Source: a virus (lineage: Duplodnaviria; Heunggongvirae; Uroviricota; Caudoviricetes). From it: 10,545 nucleotides of DNA. The notes under the pieces are model-generated. The model was not told the origin of the DNA and did no database searches. It saw only the letters and a program-made list of their open reading frames with translations. Location of the stretch: IMG/VR virus record IMGVR_UViG_2909303794_000003; one strand, written 5' to 3'. A program made the translations under genes and the position numbers. This document shows positions 446 through 10,545 of the stretch, piece by piece (the stretch's first letter is position 1; every line of letters starts with the position of its first letter).

Positions 446-625
446 ATGACTTGGCTCAGTAATGTACTCATTGAAGTACTCGCAACTATAATTTATATGT
501 TTGTGCTATTTCCATGTTGGATAGTACTGCATCTTTGTTTTATGGTTTTGGTAGTATTACTGCTACCATTTAAGATTCCAGCTATAAATAGATATGTAAT
601 GACAAAGATGAAACGCCAAAAATAA
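446..625 (+). CDS. small hydrophobic membrane protein (59 aa), two predicted TM helices, basic C-terminal tail
   Basis: Track ORF 356..625, but ATG 446 is preferred because a consensus Shine-Dalgarno AGGAGG (433-438) sits 7 nt upstream. Product MTWLSNVLIEVLATIIYMFVLFPCWIVLHLCFMVLVVLLLPF... is almost entirely hydrophobic and ends RYVMTKMKRQK. Confidence 0.5.
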   Translation: MTWLSNVLIEVLATIIYMFVLFPCWIVLHLCFMVLVVLLLPFKIPAINRYVMTKMKRQK

Positions 626-628
626 ATA

Positions 629-637
629 TGGTATAAT
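629..637 (+). promoter_or_regulatory. candidate sigma70 extended -10 element TGgTATAAT, with a second TATAAT at 643-648
   Basis: Exact TGnTATAAT in the intergenic region between the 59-aa ORF and the RHH-like ORF. No convincing -35, which extended -10 promoters do not need. Sequence only. Confidence 0.3.
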
Positions 638-663
638 ATCACTATAATTCCTCCAATAATTTG

Positions 664-687
664 CCCCAATTATTTGGGGTGCTTTTT
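664..687 (+). terminator. candidate intrinsic terminator or attenuator hairpin
   Basis: CCCCAA (664-669), loop TTAT, TTGGGG (674-679), then TGC and TTTTT (683-687). The T-run is offset 3 nt from the stem, so this is a weaker-than-canonical terminator. Confidence 0.35.
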
Positions 688-729
688 GTGTGGAAGAAAA
701 TCAGAAAAGTTTAACAAAAGGATATTGTT

Positions 730-882
730 ATGAAAGAAAAGAAAACGATTAGTGTTGGAGTGAGATTAAATCCTACACAAGAAGAAATACTAAAATCACT
801 TATAGAATGTGGTAAGGCTACTACGATTAGTTCAGCCATTCAGTATCTGATACATCAGTATGCGATTTTAGGTAGCAAGTAA
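730..882 (+). CDS. small ribbon-helix-helix-like DNA-binding protein (50 aa), putative regulator
   Basis: ORF below the track size cutoff, found by reading: ATG 730, SD AAGGA (718-722) 7 nt upstream, stop TAA 880-882. Product MKEKKTISVGVRLNPTQEEILKSLIECGKATTISSAIQYLIHQYAILGSK has a short N-terminal beta-strand segment (ISVGVRL) followed by two helical segments, the pattern of CopG/Arc/MetJ-type RHH proteins. Fold assignment is inference. Confidence 0.4.
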   Translation: MKEKKTISVGVRLNPTQEEILKSLIECGKATTISSAIQYLIHQYAILGSK

Positions 883-906
883 GGGTTTGGTACTTTCACT
901 TTAGAA

Positions 907-923
907 AAGTACTGGCAGTACTT
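907..923. promoter_or_regulatory. 17-bp perfect palindrome AAGTACTGGCAGTACTT flanked by further GTACTT half-sites (888-893, 932-937); candidate operator
   Basis: Perfect 8-1-8 inverted repeat read directly. It lies 25 bp downstream of the RHH-like gene and 69 bp upstream of the IS2 left end. No T-run follows, so it is not a terminator. Confidence 0.35.
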
Positions 924-991
924 CAGGATGAAGTACTTATTTTCAAGGAAGAAATATGAAGAAGGAAAAAAGAAATGACCTAAAAGGTCAG

Positions 992-1032
992 TAGACTGGC
1001 CCCCTGAATCTCCAGACAACCAATATCACTTA
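992..1032. repeat. IS2 left terminal inverted repeat (IRL), about 41 bp
   Basis: Imperfect inverted match to the right end (shared CTGG..CC..T.T.TCCAGACA.C...TATCACTTAA core). Extent follows established IS2 knowledge. Confidence 0.7.
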
Positions 1033-1082
1033 AATAAGTGATAGTCTTAATACTAGTTTTTAGACTAGTCATTGGAGAGCAG

Positions 1083-1448
1083 ATGATTGATGTCTTAGGA
1101 CCGGAGAAACGCAGACGGCGTACTACACAGGAAAAGATCGCTATTGTTCAGCAGAGCTTTGAACCGGGAATGACGGTCTCCCTTGTTGCCCGGCAACACG
1201 GTGTGGCAGCCAGCCAGTTATTTCTCTGGCGCAAGCAATACCAGGAGGGAAGTCTTACTGCTGTGGCCGCAGGAGAGCAGGTCGTTCCTGCCTCTGAACT
1301 TGCTGCTGCCATGAAGCAGATTAAAGAACTCCAGCGCCTGCTCGGCAAAAAAACGATGGAAAATGAACTCCTTAAAGAAGCCGTTGAATACGGGCGTGCA
1401 AAAAAGTGGATAGCGCACGCGCCCTTATTGCCCGGGGATGGGGAGTAA
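1083..1448 (+). CDS. insC: IS2 transposase OrfA (InsC), 121 aa
   Basis: Product [56 protein letters not shown]... is recognised as IS2 InsC. The track ORF starts at an upstream GTG (1038); ATG 1083 is the known start. Confidence 0.9.
1400..1406 (+). other. A AAA AAG slippery heptamer for programmed -1 ribosomal frameshifting (InsC to InsCD fusion)
   Basis: A6G lies in the InsC frame (gcA AAA AAG) exactly where the InsD frame, which is -1 relative to InsC, opens at 1406. This is the standard IS3-family OrfAB arrangement. Confidence 0.6.
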
Positions 1449-2311
1449 GCTTAGTCAGCCGTTGTCTCCGGGTGTCGCGTGCGCAGTTGCACGTAATTCT
1501 CAGACGAACCGATGACTGGAAAGATGGTCGCCGCAGCCGTCACTCAGATGATACGGATGTGCTTCTCCGTATACACCATGTTATCGGAGAGCTGCCCACG
1601 TATGGTTATCGTCGGGTATGGGCGCTGCTTCGCAGACAGGCCGAACTTGATGGTATGCCTGCGATCAATGCCAAACGTGTTTACCGGATCATGCGCCAGA
1701 ATGCGCTGTTGCTTGAGCGAAAAACCGCTGTACCGCTATCGAAACGGGCACATACTGGCAAAGTGGCCGTGAAAGAAAGCAATCAACGATGGTGCTCTGA
1801 CGGGTTCGAGTTCCGCTGTGATAACGGAGAAAAACTGCGAGTCACGTTCGCGCTGGACTGCTGTGACCGTGAGGCACTGCACTGGGCAGTCACTACGGGC
1901 GGCTTCGACAGTGAAACAGTACAGGACGTCATGCTGGGAGCGGTGGAACGCCGCTTCGGCAACGAGCTTCCGGCGTCTCCAGTAGAGTGGCTGACGGATA
2001 ATGGTTCATGCTACCGGGCTAATGAAACACGGCAGTTTGCCCGGATATTGGGGCTTGAACCGAAGAACACGGCGGTGCGGAGTCCGGAGAGTAACGGCAT
2101 AGCAGAGAGCTTCGTGAAAACGATAAAGCGTGACTACATCAGTATCATGCCTAAACCAGACGGGTTAACGGCAGCAAAGAACCTTGCAGAGGCGTTCGAG
2201 CATTATAACGAATGGCATCCGCATAGTGCACTGGGTTATCGCTCGCCACGGGAATATCTACGGCAGCGGGCCAGTAATGGGTTAAGTGATAACAGGTGTC
2301 TGGAAATATAG
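1406..2311 (+). CDS. insD: IS2 transposase OrfB (InsD), DDE catalytic domain, 301 aa
   Basis: Product ...[37 protein letters not shown]...[50 protein letters not shown]... is recognised as IS2 InsD. Expressed mainly as the InsCD frameshift fusion. Confidence 0.9.
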
Positions 2312-2322
2312 GGGCAAATCCA
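2282..2322. repeat. IS2 right terminal inverted repeat (IRR), about 41 bp
   Basis: ...TTAAGTGATAACAGGTGTCTGGAAATATAGGGGCAAATCCA at the element end. Confidence 0.7.
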
Positions 2323-2356
2323 ACTTGCTTTAGGGGGCTTCCTTAAAGATGCACAG

Positions 2357-2628
2357 ATGAATATTACACTCGTTATCCTGAATCCCTATAACAGTACTGT
2401 ATTGTACTCCATGCTGATGTTCTCAGGATTTGTTGATTACATTCAGGCAGTAGCCGATCCAAATGAAAAAACGAATGAAATGACAGTTTACGTGAATAGC
2501 ATTTATAAGAAGCTGGACAGACAGCCACCACTAATTGCTGCCAATTCAGTATATCAATCTCTCTATAAAGGGGATGAATACTTTAGTTTATTAGGACAGG
2601 TGAATCAGGATCAAACGTGGAGATACAA

Positions 2629-2632
<4 letters not shown>
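2357..2632 (+). CDS. hypothetical phage protein (91 aa), first gene after IS2; possibly a 5'-truncated remnant
   Basis: Track ORF. ATG 2357 has only a weak SD and lies 35 bp from the IS2 right end. Its stop overlaps the start of the next gene (ATGA at 2629-2632), indicating translational coupling into the tail module. The product has no recognisable motif. Confidence 0.4.
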
Positions 2633-6220
<3,588 letters not shown>

Positions 6221-6221
<1 letters not shown>

Positions 6222-6520
6222 TGGCACAGGGTTTACAATGCTGGGATGCATCTGGACGATTAATTGTCGATATTGGTGATTACAACATGCGGTACATGGG
6301 ATCAGTCAATCTTAATGTATCGGCTGGTAGTACTACATCATGGAATGTAGCCTGGTCGGGTATGCGTCCAACGGGTTGGTTGGCAGTAATGCGAGTGAGT
6401 CAGTACTGGAATGAGTTTTACTGTATTCCGGGTACTAACGCTTTCACCGTTCAATATCTTCCAGTGAGTGGCGTTTATGCCCAAACATTAACATTCGATA
6501 TATACAAATATGACGTGTAA
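6221..6520 (+). CDS. hypothetical protein (99 aa), one copy of a repeated ~100-aa domain; likely tail-fibre or receptor-binding accessory
   Basis: Track ORF 6215..6520 starts at a GTG; ATG 6221 overlaps the J stop (TAATG), indicating coupling. It shares the motifs G-x-Q-x-[WY]-[DN]-[AS]-[SA]-G-x-L and C-[IF]-PG with both halves of the next ORF. Confidence 0.55.
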
Positions 6521-6528
6521 GGATCACT

Positions 6529-7176
6529 ATGTCAGGTTTTCAGGTTTACAATTCAGCAGGTGCTCTTACGATAGATTCCGATAATAAATCGGTCGTAATG
6601 AGTTCCGTTAAAGCAATGGGCACACTCTCAGATACAGGGTATTACCTCATTAACAGTGCTTTTGGTAATGGAAGTACGTTGGGGTATCTGCCTCTAAATT
6701 TCTTCCCCAATACGGGACTACGCTGGTTCCAGCTACAGACAAATGGAAAGTACTGTTTTCCCGGCTCGGCAATGTTCGAGGCAGGTTCAGGGCGGTTCAT
6801 GCTCTCCAGTAATACCACGGCTCTTACATCGGGCTATCTCGATGTGTATAACAGTGCTGGAACATTGATCTGGTCTGCTGCCAGTGCGGGTACAATGCCA
6901 CGTATTCAGGGTTTCCTTACCGTGCCATCCTCTCATGATCTCGGTACTGCCTTGACGCTTACGACGAGTTTTGCCGATCCGTGGATATGCATTAGTCAGT
7001 GTCCGGGCAACATATCCGATGATGGCGGCACAGTTGGCTATTCCGGCATTCTCATTAAAAGGAATAGCAGTACTTCATTCTCTTTACAGTATGTGAATAA
7101 GAACCAGAAGGCATATCGACAGGCAATGGGGAACAGCGGATTTCAAATTGCTTTAGCAAGTTTCACTGGTTATTGA
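6529..7176 (+). CDS. hypothetical protein (215 aa), tandem duplication of the same ~100-aa domain
   Basis: SD AAGGA 9 nt upstream of ATG 6529. Internal repeats GFQVYNSAGALTIDSD (N-terminal half) and YLDVYNSAGTLIWSAAS (C-terminal half), plus YCFPGS versus QCPGN, parallel LQCWDASGRLIVDIGD and YCIPGT in the previous ORF. Confidence 0.6.
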   Translation: MSGFQVYNSAGALTIDSDNKSVVMSSVKAMGTLSDTGYYLINSAFGNGSTLGYLPLNFFPNTGLRWFQLQTNGKYCFPGSAMFEAGSGRFMLSSNTTALTSGYLDVYNSAGTLIWSAASAGTMPRIQGFLTVPSSHDLGTALTLTTSFADPWICISQCPGNISDDGGTVGYSGILIKRNSSTSFSLQYVNKNQKAYRQAMGNSGFQIALASFTGY

Positions 7177-7184
7177 TATAAATA
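7177..7184 (+). promoter_or_regulatory. TATAAATA motif (T4-late-promoter-like, or a sigma70 -10 variant) 30 bp upstream of the 7214 start
   Basis: Exact TATAAATA in the short intergenic gap, followed by SD TAAGG (7201-7205) and ATG 7214. The same exact octamer occurs at 370-377 and 583-590 on the same strand. Confidence 0.25.
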
Positions 7185-7213
7185 CTCATAATAACAATAA
7201 TAAGGCATAATGT

Positions 7214-7486
7214 ATGGATTTCGGTACTATTGTTGCTCTTGTTATCGCTGGCCTTGGTTTTCTTTATACGATATTCCGTGACAGTTCTTCTGATACTGAA
7301 GATTTACTCACGCGAGTTTCGCAAATTGAAGCAAAGATACAACTGCACAGTAGCAGTATAGACCGCCTCGAAACAGAGCAGGATGAAATGAAGAAGACAT
7401 TACGTAATCTCGAAGATCAAATTCATCAACTGGATTTGAAGATTGAGCGTATTCTGACAATTCTCGAAAAGACAAAAGGGGCATAA
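7214..7486 (+). CDS. membrane-anchored coiled-coil protein (90 aa); possibly lysis-associated (i-spanin-like or holin-like)
   Basis: One N-terminal TM segment (FGTIVALVIAGLGFLYTIF) followed by a heptad-like charged helix (QIEAKIQLHSSSIDRLETEQDEMKKTLRNLEDQIHQLDLKIERILTILEK). Sits next to the endolysin but on the opposite strand. Function is inferred from architecture only. Confidence 0.55.
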   Translation: MDFGTIVALVIAGLGFLYTIFRDSSSDTEDLLTRVSQIEAKIQLHSSSIDRLETEQDEMKKTLRNLEDQIHQLDLKIERILTILEKTKGA

Positions 7487-7503
7487 TGCCCCTTTGTTAT
7501 TTT
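7474..7503. terminator. bidirectional intrinsic terminator between convergent genes
   Basis: Stem GGGGC (7478-7482), loop ATAAT, GCCCC (7488-7492), followed by TTTGTTATTTT on the plus strand and preceded by AAAA (TTTT on the minus strand). It overlaps the stop codons of both convergent ORFs. Confidence 0.6.
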
Positions 7504-7940
7504 AATTGATTATTCATATCTCTTACCCGGTTTGGCGTTTGCCTGTACCATAATGAATCAACGGACTCACGCCGCACACCATCACGATCTCCCGCCTTTG
7601 CTGCTGCCAGTAGTTTTCTGAATTTACTTACGCCATTCACCCCTAACTGAAAAATCATGATGATCAGATAGTCCTCAATATCGGCAGGAAGAGTACCCAA
7701 ACGTAATGTACTTAATCCTGTCCGGGCAACTGCAATATCTTTATCAAGTAAAGTCTCTGCCTCATTCGGGGATAATCCAGTACTGAAAATTTCCCCTGAT
7801 TTGATTAAATGTCCATACCCGACAGTGCTGAATCCCAATGAGTCAGAGTATGGGAAGAACTTTCCATTACGGAAGTACCCCAATTTTGTCTGATAGGCAA
7901 TCGTGCCTTTATATTCCTTAAGTCTGCTTTTTAAATCCAT
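7497..7940 (-). CDS. endolysin, T4-type lysozyme (glycoside hydrolase family 24), soluble, no signal-arrest-release (SAR) domain
   Basis: PYSDSLGFSTVGYGH matches the phage lysozyme motif (P22 AYSDSRGIPTIGVGH, T4 YKDTEGYYTIGIGH). MIFQLGVNGVSKF and SLWYRQTPNRVRDM match T4 lysozyme MVFQMGETGVAGF and SRWYNQTPNRAKRV. No N-terminal hydrophobic segment. Confidence 0.85.
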   Translation of the reverse strand: MDLKSRLKEYKGTIAYQTKLGYFRNGKFFPYSDSLGFSTVGYGHLIKSGEIFSTGLSPNEAETLLDKDIAVARTGLSTLRLGTLPADIEDYLIIMIFQLGVNGVSKFRKLLAAAKAGDRDGVRRESVDSLWYRQTPNRVRDMNNQLK

Positions 7941-7981
7941 TCACTAAATACCTATATAAATTACATATGGGTATTTAGTGA
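7941..7981. promoter_or_regulatory. 12-bp perfect inverted repeat TCACTAAATACC / GGTATTTAGTGA around a 17-bp AT-rich spacer; candidate divergent promoter-operator
   Basis: Arms at 7941-7952 and 7970-7981. The spacer TATATAAATTACATATG contains TATAAATT. Each arm abuts the start codon of one of the two divergent genes (endolysin ATG ends at 7940 on the minus strand; plus-strand ATG at 7981). Confidence 0.4.
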
Positions 7982-8430
7982 TGAGAATTAATAACAACTG
8001 GACGATGTTCGAACCAGAACAATGGGATATCAAGGAAGTAAATGAAGGTCTGTACTGTTCATTTGTGTACTTAATTGAATTTCCCGAAACGGGGGAGTAC
8101 TACTTCGGGAAGAAGCAGATATATAAAGGTATCAAAGATATTTCAAACCTTAAGGGTACTTCAACGGAAAGCAACTGGCTGGATTATACGGGCAGCAGTA
8201 AAAGTGTAAATGCCATGATTGATTCAGGTATGGAGTACTCAAAAAGGATTCTGTACTGCTTTAAAACTGATGCTGAAGCCACTTTAATTGAAACTGCATT
8301 GATTAGCTATTACGGCTTACATCCCGACAATCTCAATAAAGCCATTCTGTGTAAATCCCGATTGCCAAAAAATCGAATTGAATTGTTCCGGGTGCTACAG
8401 AGTTTGATCGAAATGTTGGGCGTGAGGTAA
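7981..8430 (+). CDS. hypothetical protein (149 aa); weak GIY-YIG-like / T5orf172-like motif
   Basis: Track ORF 7978..8430 starts at a GTG; ATG 7981 is adjacent. GLYCSFVYLIEFPETGEYYFGKK resembles the G-[IVL]-Y ... Y-[IV]-G-K beta-hairpin of GIY-YIG-superfamily domains, but the spacing is longer than canonical and the downstream conserved Arg/Glu are not evident. Low-confidence motif call. Confidence 0.45.
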   Translation: MRINNNWTMFEPEQWDIKEVNEGLYCSFVYLIEFPETGEYYFGKKQIYKGIKDISNLKGTSTESNWLDYTGSSKSVNAMIDSGMEYSKRILYCFKTDAEATLIETALISYYGLHPDNLNKAILCKSRLPKNRIELFRVLQSLIEMLGVR

Positions 8431-8432
8431 AT

Positions 8433-9002
8433 ATGATTAGAGGCAGAATAACAGGGCTGAATAACGCAACAACCTATCTTAATACTACAGGTCAACGTCT
8501 TGGACGTGACTTTCAGAATGAAATAATCAAAAGGTCAAGGGCGTTATCAGCCAAAATGCAAATGGACTTAAACAATGCCGTCGATAAAGGAGCAGTACCT
8601 TTCACTCAGCGTTCCATTCTCTTTATGTACAAGAAAGTTGGTAATGGAGTTCGCAGTACTATTCTCGTGAAGGATCTACAAGCGAAGTACTTATATGACG
8701 TACTTGTTGAGGAAAAAGCCCTTGATAAGTTTGTACCAACGAGTAAGGCACGTCTTGATCGGTTCGGTAACATTGCAGGGTTGAAACGTAATCTATCAAA
8801 TGGGCGTTATAAGGTCATTAAAGGGAAGAATGGTAAAGAGCGATTGATTGATACCAGCCAGAAGAAGAAAGAAAAGCGAGTAATTGGATTACGTGAAAGT
8901 AAGAAACGTAAAATCATTTATGATTTCTATGCAGAAGCAGAGAAGGGGGCAAGACTTGTTCTCGCAGGGATACAGGGATCGTTTGTTATAAAAAAGGGAT
9001 AA
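8433..9002 (+). CDS. hypothetical basic protein (189 aa) with a Lys/Arg-rich C-terminal region
   Basis: SD GAGG 8 nt upstream; start is 3 nt after the previous stop. The C-terminal part (KGKNGKERLIDTSQKKKEKRVIGLRESKKRK) is strongly basic, suggesting nucleic-acid binding. The N-terminal 60 aa loosely resembles the HK97 gp10-like tail-component pattern (RAL...A...AVP...RS); unverified. Confidence 0.5.
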   Translation: MIRGRITGLNNATTYLNTTGQRLGRDFQNEIIKRSRALSAKMQMDLNNAVDKGAVPFTQRSILFMYKKVGNGVRSTILVKDLQAKYLYDVLVEEKALDKFVPTSKARLDRFGNIAGLKRNLSNGRYKVIKGKNGKERLIDTSQKKKEKRVIGLRESKKRKIIYDFYAEAEKGARLVLAGIQGSFVIKKG

Positions 9003-9003
9003 T

Positions 9004-9315
9004 ATGAATTTTGAAGAACACTATGGTGAACTTACGAGTGAGATAACGCTGAATGGTACTATACCAGATGGTAATAGTATGCCAATCAACAAGTGCTTTC
9101 TCGGAAAGAAGTTCCAGAAGCAATTGAAGAAAGCAGATATACAGATTGAGTGCTTTATGAATATCTGCTACGAGAAAAAACAAAGTTTTAAAGATGGTGA
9201 AGTACTCACATGGTCACTACAGGGTGATGAAATGGATGTGTACTTAATCGAAAGTAAAAGGTTATTTGTAAAGGGAAAGCACTTTTGGGGATATTGTGTG
9301 GGGATCATTGAATGA
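9004..9315 (+). CDS. hypothetical protein (103 aa)
   Basis: SD AAGGGA upstream; start is 2 nt after the previous stop; Cys-containing; no recognisable motif. Confidence 0.5.
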   Translation: MNFEEHYGELTSEITLNGTIPDGNSMPINKCFLGKKFQKQLKKADIQIECFMNICYEKKQSFKDGEVLTWSLQGDEMDVYLIESKRLFVKGKHFWGYCVGIIE

Positions 9316-9602
9316 TTGGAATGATAATTGATTTAATCAAAACTGGATTGGGCTTCTTCCAGAAAAAAGAACAAAGCAAACAGGAACTGGACGCACAGAA
9401 CAGTCACGAGCAGAACGAGATCACACTTGAAGAAACACGTAAGGGCTTCACGTGGCGACAGGGTTTAGGCTGGGTACTAACGTTCATCATTCTATGGAAC
9501 TACGTCATTGTGCCAGTACTGGCATTGTGTGGTGTAGTACTTCCCATAGTTCCACTTGATGAAATATGGAAAGTACTGATCATCTTAATCGGTGGGAGTT
9601 GA
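9312..9602 (+). CDS. small membrane protein (96 aa): hydrophilic N-terminal half, two C-terminal hydrophobic segments
   Basis: ATGA start/stop overlap with the previous gene. C-terminal GLGWVLTFIILWNYVIVPVLALCGVVLPIV and IWKVLIILIGG are predicted TM helices. The protein ends immediately after the last helix, unlike a typical holin with a charged C-terminal tail. Its 3' end overlaps the convergent minus-strand ORF by 18 bp. Confidence 0.5.
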   Translation: MIGMIIDLIKTGLGFFQKKEQSKQELDAQNSHEQNEITLEETRKGFTWRQGLGWVLTFIILWNYVIVPVLALCGVVLPIVPLDEIWKVLIILIGGS

Positions 9603-10283
9603 TTTTGTCTCTCTAAACAATACTCGCCATGAAGTAAGCCATGTTGAAGGGAGGATTTGGGTAAGTGCGAAGGCTGGTATGAAACTCAAATTATGAAATT
9701 CCCAATTCTTCTTGCGTGCCATACCACTTACATCTTGACATATGTTAATCATTTTATCGCTAATGATAATAAAGTTGTAGTAATGTGTTATACATTGTTC
9801 AAGTTCTTTAGACTTGTCTGGATGTACTTCAATGTTCCAAACTCGTAATATATCTAATTGCGATTTCAATTTAATCAGATGATCTTTATAATCAGCATGC
9901 AAGTCATTTACCTTAGAGTTTTTGCTTTGGTACTCTTTATCGGTGATGTTAAGATCTTTATTTCCTAACATTTCATACATATCATTGATATAAGTATGTA
10001 ATATTTCCGCCTTTACTTTCGCTTCAATAAAGTAACTGATATAAACGTTTGCTTGTTCAAAACCTTTTTCATTAAGTTTTGAATCTAACCATCTATAAAC
10101 TTTAAAAACTGTGATGAGTGCTATTACTGCCATTATAGTATCCATGATTGCTGATGTAGTAGAGCTATCATATCCATGAAGTAATAGTAAATCGGTGTAA
10201 ATTGGTATTAATGCACCAATAGCAAGACATGCAATATGTGAAAATCTTATTTCATTTCTGATTTTTTTTAAAATCACTTTCAA
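9585..10283 (-). CDS. two-TM membrane protein with a ~160-aa helical cytoplasmic domain (232 aa if the TTG start is used); unknown function, candidate exclusion or abortive-infection effector
   Basis: Track ORF with a TTG start at 10283 (GTG at 10277 is an alternative); AGGGA lies 4 nt upstream of the TTG; the first ATG is at codon 46. Two N-terminal hydrophobic helices (HIACLAIGALIPIYTDLLLL and IMDTIMAVIALITVFKVY). The region is markedly AT-rich (roughly 30% GC by eye) and has no AGTACT sites, unlike the phage backbone. Confidence 0.5.
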   Translation of the reverse strand: MKVILKKIRNEIRFSHIACLAIGALIPIYTDLLLLHGYDSSTTSAIMDTIMAVIALITVFKVYRWLDSKLNEKGFEQANVYISYFIEAKVKAEILHTYINDMYEMLGNKDLNITDKEYQSKNSKVNDLHADYKDHLIKLKSQLDILRVWNIEVHPDKSKELEQCITHYYNFIIISDKMINICQDVSGMARKKNWEFHNLSFIPAFALTQILPSTWLTSWRVLFRETKSTPTD

Positions 10284-10305
10284 AGCATCCCTATGAAATT
10301 ATTGG

Positions 10306-10330
10306 AAAGCCTGTATATAGCACAGGCTTT
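10306..10330. promoter_or_regulatory. 9-bp perfect inverted repeat AAAGCCTGT (7-nt loop) ACAGGCTTT in the gap between the two minus-strand genes
   Basis: Read directly. It lies between the stop of the 69-aa ORF (10336) and the start of the membrane-protein ORF (10283). On the minus-strand transcript it is not followed by a U-run, so an operator or RNA regulatory hairpin is more likely than a terminator. Confidence 0.35.
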
Positions 10331-10335
10331 TATTG

Positions 10336-10545
10336 TTACCAATCCCAATCAATAGTAGTATCCAAATCACGCAAGTTAGTATGTTCTGTGCGAGTCGCTA
10401 CGAGAACAACATCACCAGTTTCTTTCGAAACAATATCAAAAACTTCAATTTCCGTTTGGCCCATTGTACCTTTCGTTCTAAAACTCTTTCTGACGTAAGT
10501 GTATTTTTCTTTTGGATAATTACTTTCAAATAATGCTTCATTCAT
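10336..10545 (-). CDS. hypothetical small protein (at least 69 aa), upstream partner of the two-TM protein
   Basis: Track ORF. Its ATG is the last three bases of the window, so the real N-terminus and RBS cannot be confirmed and the gene may extend beyond the window. Product (…GQTEIEVFDIVSKETGDVVLVATRTEHTNLRDL…) looks like a real mixed-charge protein, unlike the low-complexity plus-strand ORF that overlaps it. Confidence 0.4.
   Translation of the reverse strand: MNEALFESNYPKEKYTYVRKSFRTKGTMGQTEIEVFDIVSKETGDVVLVATRTEHTNLRDLDTTIDWDW

Follow-up and report, generated by a model that had tools for sequence, protein, structure and literature searches.

Among the described systems closest to the locus analysed here are small prophage-encoded proteins of the inner membrane. 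The archetypal moron is gp15 of phage HK97, a small inner-membrane protein which blocks genome injection (PMC3594210) and acts on HK97 and HK75 (PMC3594210); the moron criteria, in the Hendrix/Juhala definition, are summarised in the same work, according to which morons often encode host-fitness factors (PMC3594210). HK97 gp15 is a YebO family member of only 62 aa, and its gene lies inside the tail operon, is co-oriented with that operon and is followed by its own terminator. SieA of P22 blocks P22-like phages (PMC10883804). It has 162 to 164 aa with three predicted transmembrane (TM) segments and no large cytoplasmic bundle, and its gene, which has its own promoter, directly follows the late operon's last gene and lies on the other strand. 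SieB of lambda and P22 and RexB of lambda are lysogen-expressed membrane proteins of temperate phages acting in abortive infection (Abi). In SieB, a cytoplasmic part accompanies the N-terminal TM segments, while RexB requires RexA. A two-TM helical architecture is found in SLATT effectors, and class II holins have two TM segments with both the N and the C terminus inside.

The window, i.e., the whole stretch of 10,545 nucleotides that we analysed, comprises an IS-truncated prophage of an uncultured enterobacterial siphovirus-like lineage. At its right edge, as the initial annotation had described, the coding strand changes; two minus-strand open reading frames, 9585 to 10283 (232 aa, p232) and 10336 to 10545 (69 aa, p69), are adjacent and co-oriented with 52 nt between them. 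The p232 gene shares the layout of P22 sieA, being the first gene beyond the late operon and opposite to it in orientation, and both proteins are prophage-encoded, are assigned to the inner membrane by prediction or by experiment, and occur as several weakly similar sequence types. However, p232 is predicted to have two rather than three TM segments and a large cytoplasmic bundle, and whereas exclusion by SieA was shown experimentally, exclusion by p232 is a proposal. With HK97 gp15 it has in common that extra DNA of differing GC content is found in the late-gene region, but p232 is much larger and its gene is convergent to the late operon. Unlike RexB, p232 has no obligate partner, and unlike SLATT systems it has no linked nucleotide-signal or reverse transcriptase (RT) partner, although the two-TM helical architecture is shared.

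Composition and layout of the prophage end

The GC content of positions 9603 to 10545 is 32.2% (31.5% for p232 and 34.8% for p69), compared with 41.8% for the phage backbone (2357 to 9584), in which the minimum over windows of 943 nt is 38.0%. GC3 is 27% in p232 and 26% in p69, against 34 to 46% in the backbone genes. The AT-rich edge is therefore an outlier in both GC and GC3, which agrees with the low-GC edge originally reported. The accompanying claim that an AGTACT signature is lost from about position 9600 was also confirmed, since the window contains 32 copies of this hexamer (2.2 expected) and none after 9577. In the full locus L007, 34 copies occur within 10 kb of late genes and none in the 943-bp cassette. 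At backbone density the cassette would be expected to hold about 3.2 to 3.7 copies, so that their absence is only mildly significant (p of about 0.03 to 0.04). The neighbouring methyltransferase was considered as the cause of the AGTACT enrichment, and no simple link emerged: locus L005 carries a methyltransferase homologue 67% identical and yet is almost free of AGTACT, while L044 is AGTACT-enriched with no gene annotated as that methyltransferase within the stretch fetched.

On its inner side the edge is bordered by a holin-like gene of 96 codons (9312 to 9602, plus strand), the last gene of the plus-strand late operon, which was found in most of the related loci that reach that side and forms the fixed left border of a variable slot. 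Its product has a weak match to PF11351 (GTA_holin_3TM) and falls in phrog_2024, and the G3/10 homologue is named "3TM-type holin" by PGAP. The 3' ends of p232 and of this gene overlap by 18 bp (9585 to 9602), as had been noted; among relatives the convergent overlap amounts to 21 bp in L015 and is missing in L002. A terminator-like hairpin followed by a T-run (9436 to 9454, minus strand) lies 130 nt past the p232 stop codon, inside the holin-like reading frame, and might possibly serve as the p232 terminator, although it is a weak candidate (one site, against 0.6 +/- 1.0 in shuffled sequences). On the outer side, Escherichia coli contigs that are 99.9% identical show a divergent gene for a 236-aa methyltransferase, a DUF2188 gene and then the chromosomal mipA, and thus the suggestion that the cassette might continue beyond the window does not hold. 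Rfam and tRNA scans of the region returned no RNA genes.

We compared about 60 related loci collected from assemblies, IMG/VR and metagenomes. In otherwise collinear relatives, the slot that separates the holin-like gene from the genes on the attachment-site side varies in content, being occupied by p232 subtypes, by alt264, by the 94-aa alt94, by the 143-aa alt143 or by a 230-aa protein. Of these, alt264 is encoded on the opposite strand and appears as a distant superfamily member (33 bits against the A2 profile; hhalign probability of 50%). The slot is a hotspot for cargo at the end of these prophages, which form an uncultured enterobacterial lineage. Two of the moron criteria, namely a GC content unlike that of the surroundings (32.2% against 41.8%) and presence or replacement among related phages, are thus observed here, the latter through the variation of the slot in collinear relatives, and the view of the edge as a compositionally foreign, horizontally acquired moron is upheld. 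Rather than one cassette, however, the edge consists of two accessory genes of the moron type that are independent of each other, located where an E. coli prophage ends at its attachment site.

p69, its hairpin and the independence of the two genes

p69 (10336 to 10545, minus strand) had been taken for the visible part of a protein of at least 69 aa. It is instead complete at this length, because its ATG (10545 to 10543) occupies the final three bases of the window and its homologues are likewise 69 aa long in many loci; the stop codon occupies 10338 to 10336. Its product is predicted to be a small cytoplasmic alpha+beta protein, made of one helix and a four-stranded sheet with a cystatin/NTF2-like fold. 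The gene recurs close to the attachment-site end across much of the prophage lineage, and both p69 and p232 are under purifying selection (dN/dS of 0.20 to 0.25 for p232).

Five nucleotides past the p69 stop codon there is an intercistronic hairpin (10305 to 10331, minus strand), whose arms (10306 to 10314 and 10322 to 10330) are the perfect 9-bp inverted repeat correctly recognised in the initial annotation. The corresponding RNA stem has 10 bp and a centroid energy of -12.6 kcal/mol, with a z-score of only -1.6, and by our own estimate about 0.4 perfect 9-bp repeats are expected by chance per 1 kb of such composition. The significance of the repeat therefore comes not from chance rarity but from its position and from compensatory variation in homologous loci: hairpins of differing sequence occupy the same place after p69 in L006, L012, L015, L020 and L022, whichever gene is located downstream. 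A consensus terminator scan did not call the hairpin, and its T-run is short in the window. We regard it as probably a leaky or bidirectional terminator of p69. Between the hairpin and the p232 start there is no room for a promoter, and the 45-bp intergenic stretch upstream of p69 in L007 gave no match to the sigma-70 consensus.

The two genes assort independently. Both are present in the window and L007 to L011, and in L006, L012 to L014, L015 to L019, L049 and L054, whereas p232 family genes without p69 were found in at least 10 arrangements (L002/3, L004, L005, L029 to L031, L039/40, L044, L050, L052, L053 and L055) and p69 without a p232 family gene in at least three (L020 to L028 and L041/42). 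Identities to the same relatives are also discordant, being 82% for p232 and 67% for p69 with respect to L006 but 49% and 75%, respectively, with respect to L015. In relatives, p69 or the p232-like gene begins 27 nt after a co-oriented phage-borne phosphatase gene. The proposal of a two-gene module, in which a small partner serves a two-TM effector, is contradicted by this assortment, by the discordant identities and by the presence of the p69 hairpin regardless of the downstream gene, and we infer that p69 is a separate small cytoplasmic protein with a probable terminator of its own, not a required partner of p232.

The p232 membrane protein family

The p232 gene (9585 to 10283, minus strand) starts with TTG at 10283 or with an alternative GTG at 10277, the start being uncertain since the ATG used by relatives, three codons upstream, reads AGG here. 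Its close relatives form 13 clusters, and at E<=1e-3 a search of 1.84e9 proteins gave 85 representatives for the family as a whole, with relatives named "hypothetical protein" by all sources. From these sequence comparisons, p232 appears to found an unannotated inner-membrane protein family of about 85 clusters.

The two N-terminal TM helices claimed earlier were recovered by hydropathy as two hydrophobic 19-mers at residues ~15 to 36 and 42 to 63, and the AF2 model, which is all-helical, places a helical hairpin there. This hairpin (10095 to 10241; residues ~15 to 63), delineated by hydropathy and invariant columns, includes a short loop, HGYDSST, predicted to be periplasmic. No other part of the family is as well conserved, and G23, D31, S44, A45, D48 and T49, and then W65, are invariant in alignment A3. 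D31, D48, S44 and T49 fall inside the predicted membrane helices, the two Asp residues being buried, and together with H36 and the DSST loop they make up the periplasm-proximal polar and acidic positions of the hairpin. Continuous with the second TM helix, a putative cytoplasmic four-helix bundle (9657 to 10094; residues ~64 to 209) diverges fast between subtypes: mean pairwise identity in A3 is 56% over residues 14 to 80 and 26% over the bundle, and the corresponding values in A2 are 30% and 12%. The K/R-rich flanks suggest a topology with both termini in the cytoplasm, and the structural model is consistent with a protein of the inner membrane. One family member is fused to an 8xMP membrane module (PF24838), to which the p232 profile itself shows no relation; our literature search on this Pfam family returned nothing.

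A link to SLATT or known Abi proteins, for which the initial annotation had proposed a search, did not materialise, as p232 has no significant match in Pfam, PHROG, PADLOC or NCBIfam. In PADLOC-DB v2.0.0 no family was reached at E<=1 by either p232 or p69. No SLATT domain was detected with Pfam in p232 at E<=0.1, nor in the 69 family members (p232 and 68 relatives) at E<=0.01, and hhalign of p232 against the SLATT_5 protein of L006 gave a probability of 0.7%. Neither SieB (PF14163) nor RexB was matched by p232 in Pfam, and the hhalign probabilities were 0.2% against lambda SieB, 0.3% against lambda RexB and 0.3% each against P22 SieA and HK97 gp15. PDB sequence profiles gave no match either. 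The best named fold match is orf1 of Haemophilus phage HP1 (P51700; BFVD E=3e-3, TM-score 0.42 to 0.46), a protein of ~205 aa to which a weak hhalign alignment covers the loop and the second TM helix in matching register (G-x-DS...W). This sequence similarity is not significant (probability of 5.5%) and, since HP1 orf1 is uncharacterised, it adds no mechanism. HP1 orf1 lies downstream of PL and on the same strand as cI and int, which flank it, and for this reason is probably expressed in lysogens.

As judged from sequence, the p232 family is confined to one prophage lineage. Most of the p232-family loci with interpretable flanks carry the lys-GIY-p189-holin module or a deletion remnant of it; from some contigs that are short or truncated it is missing altogether. 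The cassette had no match among 50,697 phage records (megablast and tblastn) or in plasmids (megablast), and the phage backbone had only short tail-gene matches to phage records. Two pattern scans found no relatives in 185,579 GTDB species representatives. Among 5,426 complete E. coli genomes, near mode gave a single match, restricted to the holin part, and distant mode gave five. The gene is nevertheless kept intact in decayed prophages, namely in the IS-truncated window and in L004, L006 and L012/13/L051, and in two of these settings defence genes are close by: a type II-A retron lies 1.3 kb from the homologue in L012/13, and a SLATT_5 (RT-associated SLATT) gene 2.7 kb from that in L006.

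Candidate roles of p232

The most likely role of p232, which we put forward tentatively, is that of an exclusion protein of the inner membrane expressed by the prophage. A reading in terms of exclusion or defence is the most plausible one given position, architecture and neighbours. p232 would be made from the repressed prophage by read-through of the leaky hairpin from a p69 promoter or, in relatives, by transcription from the upstream phage-borne phosphatase gene, and would act as a superinfection-exclusion factor in the manner of P22 SieA and HK97 gp15, its membrane hairpin hindering incoming phages of its own or a related lineage in building the conduit through which the genome is delivered, with subtypes differing in specificity. 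In this scheme expression in lysogens, the topology in the membrane, exclusion itself and the step concerned are all deduced rather than observed. Exclusion is favoured by the foreign composition together with the loss of the backbone motif, the variable slot at collinear prophage ends, the gene layout shared with P22 sieA, the retention in decayed prophages, the purifying selection and the likely lysogen-expressed structural relative HP1 orf1, and its direction against kin by the lineage restriction, which parallels the known injection blockers SieA and gp15. Against it stand the result that p232 is homologous to none of the exclusion and defence proteins characterised so far and the missing consensus promoter upstream of p69 in L007. 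A block at entry in particular is weakened by the fact that SieA and gp15 have no large cytoplasmic domain, and by the combination of a conserved hairpin with a variable bundle of ~150 aa, which suits a sensor-plus-pore (abortive) protein at least equally well.

In such an abortive-infection effector the bundle would sense a phage product, the two-TM hairpin would oligomerise into an ion pore, and collapse of the membrane potential would kill the cell. We consider this a somewhat doubtful alternative. It would account for a hairpin about twice as conserved as the bundle, for invariant D31, D48, S44 and T49 within membrane helices, for the fusion to 8xMP (PF24838), for the bona fide defence neighbours in decayed elements and for a topology like that of class II holins; but the family is limited to one prophage lineage, unlike typical promiscuous defence systems, it lacks any PADLOC match or similarity to SLATT, RexB or SieB, and a constitutive pore former would need tight control, for which no partner is conserved. 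That p232 is itself a class II holin was rejected, because such holins are two-TM proteins of less than 150 aa encoded in and co-transcribed with the lysis cassette, whereas p232 has 232 aa with a 150-aa bundle, faces the late operon convergently and does not occur in several relatives with that holin. A regulatory part in the prophage's own lysis, as an antiholin or holin-timing factor for the 3TM-type holin or through a convergent transcript that damps leaky holin expression in lysogens, might be read from the usual convergent adjacency to the holin-like gene (with 3' overlaps of 18 to 21 bp in some loci) and from the holin-like two-TM topology, and lineage restriction would suit co-evolution with the holin. 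We judge it improbable, since p232 is missing where the same holin is retained (L001, L025 to L028, L041/42), other genes intervene before the holin in L034/35 and apparently in L055 and L058/60 (~1 kb apart), the overlap is not conserved, p232 persists in remnants without lysis genes (L004, L012) and its composition is foreign to the lysis module.

A lysogenic-conversion gene outside phage conflict, acting on the physiology of the host envelope, on the handling of ions or metals or on signalling, seems unlikely but deserves consideration. In its fold the bundle is similar to the sensor domains found in chemoreceptors and histidine kinases, a cation might be bound by the Asp, His, Ser and Thr residues clustered near the periplasm, the gene directly follows a phage-borne pyridoxal phosphatase gene in relatives, and host-fitness factors are often encoded by morons (PMC3594210). 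Yet the sensor-domain match is generic (4 to 8% identity), p232 has no output domain, and strict linkage to a single lineage with subtypes co-occurring in one prophage (L034/35) looks more like an arms race. Least probable of all, and very much so, is an obligate two-component module of p69 and p232, either a toxin-antitoxin pair or a sensor plus channel similar to RexA/RexB. Adjacency and co-orientation at 52 nt without promoter room after the hairpin, together with co-occurrence in several arrangements, would fit it, but the co-occurrence census largely refutes it, as either gene stands alone in many lineages; the discordant identities, the hairpin after p69 whatever gene follows and the lack of similarity to RexB are also against it.

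If p232 has no phage phenotype, the region would be another pair of hypothetical prophage accessory genes. If exclusion by p232 holds, an uncatalogued family would join the prophage-encoded membrane immunity factors, which are far less understood than cytoplasmic defence systems, and its subtypes would offer a natural series, with a conserved hairpin and a variable bundle, for mapping specificity. It is possible, although we would not yet call it likely, that the p232 family with alt264, and perhaps HP1 orf1, represents a new and broadly distributed class of membrane immunity proteins that consist of a single polypeptide and are expressed in lysogens; a hairpin with a buried acidic pair would be the effector (a pore or a plug of the injection conduit) and an interchangeable bundle would set phage specificity. 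Such a class is absent from every current defence or exclusion catalogue. Further candidates could come from the cargo hotspot itself, where alt264, alt94, alt143 and the 230-aa protein take the place of p232.

Two genes at the edge of a prophage

According to our analysis, the AT-rich right edge of the window carries two minus-strand genes, p69 (10336-10545) and p232 (9585-10283), encoding proteins of 69 and 232 aa and separated by a perfect 9-bp inverted repeat (10306-10314/10322-10330). The 3' end of p232 overlaps by 18 bp a 96-aa holin-like ORF (9312-9602), the last of three small late genes. The ORF pair, the repeat, and the convergent overlap are thus present as the initial annotation had described them. 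Both are real genes; dN/dS values against homologues are 0.10 to 0.18 for p69 and 0.20 to 0.25 for p232. The reported fall in GC content holds as well, since the sequence right of 9602 has 32.2% GC versus 41.8% in the phage backbone (2357-9584), where no window of equal length falls below 38.0%, and GC3 in the cassette drops to 26 to 27%. The palindrome AGTACT, with 32 sites in the window versus 2.2 expected, has none past 9577, in agreement with the loss of this signature noted earlier.

From position 2323 to 10545, the window matches the contigs L007 and L008 of E. coli assemblies with 99.9% identity; in these contigs the small protein, previously given as at least 69 aa, is exactly 69 aa. 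There, a 236-aa orphan type II-like DNA methyltransferase gene (PADLOC MTase_II and mad2 matches) lies 45 bp upstream of p69 and divergent from it, beside an equally divergent DUF2188 gene (L007 8670-9693). This pair forms the final prophage genes and is followed by chromosomal mipA. Because of this order, the cassette, which had been thought to possibly continue beyond the window, is limited to exactly two genes, close to the prophage-chromosome junction.

The window represents the tail and lysis end of the prophage, including, in its tail region, a DUF6950 gene and a gene for a 1067-aa tail-tip protein. A minus-strand lysozyme gene (7497-7940), which runs against the late operon, and an adjacent SegE-like GIY-YIG homing-endonuclease-type gene (7978-8430) form an arrangement (7497-8430) kept across the prophage lineage. 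An IS3-family element (approximately 1038-2322; HTH_Tnp_1 and rve ORFs, 53% GC) splits the tail operon. Since its edge coincides exactly with the end of identity to the intact relatives L007/L008 (2322/2323), and positions 1-1037 have no blastn match to the tail operon continuing in those loci, the prophage looks rearranged or truncated, the cassette nonetheless being intact. Left of the element, a second AT-rich stretch (300-1000; 30 to 33% GC) contains an 89-aa hydrophobic ORF (356-625; 30.7% GC) and a 50-aa ORF (730-882), neither with a family match, and may be another moron-like insert.

A variable slot in one prophage lineage

Our survey drew on assemblies, IMG/VR, metagenomes, and complete E. 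coli genomes and covered about 60 related loci, which were scored by tblastn with the window's proteins. Those with visible flanks belong mostly to one prophage lineage or its deletion remnants, whose conserved end reads lysozyme, GIY-YIG, p189, (p103), holin-like gene, variable slot, (p69), an optional block made up either of the methyltransferase and DUF2188 genes or of an apparently phage-borne HAD phosphatase gene, and finally the junction. The element is rare, since distant DNA matches occur in only 5 of 5,426 complete E. coli genomes. The slot holds p232-family genes of many subtypes, 30 to 100% identical, or alternative cargo, all of it unannotated: alt264, encoding a 264-aa protein with two transmembrane (TM) segments on the strand opposite to p232 (L020 6249-7043(-); L034/L035 near 793, where a p232-type gene is also present), a 94-aa protein (L025 6299-6583(-)), a 143-aa protein whose N terminus is hydrophobic and signal-peptide-like (L001 15322-15753), and a 230-aa protein that is hydrophobic in a stretch near its C terminus (L041 3984-4676(-)). 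The p232 family occurs without p69 in L002/L003, L004, L005, L029 to L031, L039/L040, L044 (strain G3/10), L050, L052, L053, and L055, p69 without the p232 family in L020 to L028 and L041/L042, and both together in the window and in L006 to L019, L048, L049, L051, and L054. The p69 protein forms seventeen clusters in Escherichia, Klebsiella, Raoultella, and Enterobacter (62 to 100% identity), with the invariant motifs KGxMGQTEIE and RTEHT; a further copy is present in a 5.5-Mb genome.

In most loci examined, a hairpin of varying sequence lies 3' of the p69 stop, irrespective of the next gene. Its stem is followed by three T where a co-directional p232-type gene comes next, versus four in L020/L022, which have a convergent gene there; in this small sample, the shorter T-run suggests that the hairpin in the window is a leaky terminator. 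As only about 22 nt separate it from the start of p232, transcription of p232 probably depends on read-through. Relatives whose integration site is ybhA (L044 5728-7678, E. coli G3/10; L015 to L024, L002, L012) carry a truncated piece of the host ybhA and, after it, an apparently phage-borne pyridoxal-phosphatase (HAD) gene of full length. The p69 or p232 homologue begins some 27 to 40 nt downstream in the same orientation, which suggests co-transcription with the phosphatase, a gene necessarily on in lysogens.

The p232 protein family

The protein p232 is named hypothetical in every source and has no significant match in the Pfam, PHROGs, PADLOC, and NCBIfam profile libraries, in line with the earlier remark that it lacks a recognizable motif. 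Word-indexed searching brought up 13 close clusters; when 1.84 billion representatives were searched exhaustively with a profile, 85 proteins scored at E<=1e-3, and almost all of them are 215 to 275 aa long. A Pfam scan of 69 family members returned an informative family in none save the 461-aa fusion P0089 (L041/L042 8001-9386), in which a p232-like C-terminal half is joined to an N-terminal half formed by an 8xMP (PF24838) membrane domain, a family on which we found no literature. The prophage remnant encoding this fusion also has p69.

Hydropathy places two TM segments at residues ~15-36 and ~42-63, bearing out the N-terminal helices originally proposed, and the K/R-rich flanks and short acidic loop (HGYDSST) imply a predicted N-in, C-in topology. 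In the AlphaFold model (pLDDT 78; 83 to 95 in the bundle), the second helix of a helical hairpin continues into a four-helix bundle. Residues G23, D31, S44, A45, D48, T49, W65, and W149 are invariant in a 19-sequence alignment, and the whole family keeps a C-terminal aromatic motif with F223 as its last residue. Conservation in the hairpin and juxtamembrane region is about double that in the bundle, both in that alignment (56% versus 26%) and in a broader one (30% versus 12%).

The best fold matches among viral models are two uncharacterized myovirus proteins and Haemophilus phage HP1 orf1 (E=3e-3), the best named one. The orf1 gene (L047 1698-2315(-)) lies in the cI-to-int string on the same strand, and its product gives a weak hhalign match to p232 in the same register, with the G-x-DS loop and a post-TM2 Trp in common, a hint that membrane proteins from lysogeny regions may form a wider superfamily. 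Judged by sequence profiles (33 bits against the broader alignment; hhalign 50% over the hairpin), alt264 is a distant member of the p232 superfamily. Direct profile comparisons of p232 with a SLATT_5 protein, 8xMP, lambda SieB and RexB, P22 SieA, and HK97 gp15 were all negative, and the SLATT/Abi link once suggested is borne out neither by these nor by the library searches.

Possible role of p232

Morons are recognized by variable presence, deviant GC, their own terminator and promoter, and expression from the prophage (PMC3594210). The region has the first two and perhaps, in part, the third, and its deviant GC together with variable presence in the slot makes the reading as a foreign moron sound. 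Membrane morons at prophage ends are a well-known kind of element; the protein family itself carries no annotation and is missing from catalogues of defence systems.

A putative phage-exclusion role of p232 is supported by its cargo-hotspot position, by the confinement of the family largely to one phage lineage, and by a layout matching P22 sieA, likewise convergent and directly after the late operon. It is further supported by the gene remaining intact where the prophage has decayed (in the IS-truncated window, L004, L006, and L012). Of these, L012 and L006, apparent deletion remnants of the lineage that retain p69 and a p232 homologue, hold bona fide defence genes beside them: a type II-A retron in L012 (NDT and RT; 9945-12061) and an RT-associated SLATT protein in L006, where the same stretch (2815-6898) also has DUF3800, a resolvase, and an 8xMP membrane protein. 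SieA and gp15 are kin-directed injection blockers with the same type of lineage restriction (PMC10883804, PMC3594210), and we tentatively propose that p232 might, in a similar manner, stop genome entry of incoming phage at the inner membrane. An abortive, sensor-gated pore, the main rival, would better account for a conserved polar hairpin joined to a variable cytoplasmic bundle but leaves the lineage restriction unexplained, and we consider it doubtful. A conversion gene unrelated to phage conflict is rather unlikely, and a function in lysis control improbable. The two-gene module initially envisaged does not stand, as each gene is found alone in several loci and identities to relatives are discordant (82% for p232 and 67% for p69 to L006; 49% and 75% to L015), and an obligate pair or toxin-antitoxin system seems highly improbable.

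As a separate observation, AGTACT is the sole enriched palindromic hexamer, 12- to 15-fold in the backbone (window 475-9577; also L007 10682-20699), with zero sites in the IS element and in the cassette. Members of the lineage differ in AGTACT density, with values between 0.13 and 3.4 per kb versus ~0.1 per kb in host flanks, and this density does not track the neighbouring methyltransferase. The sites are spread over all three reading frames (8/11/7) and therefore point to selection at the DNA level.
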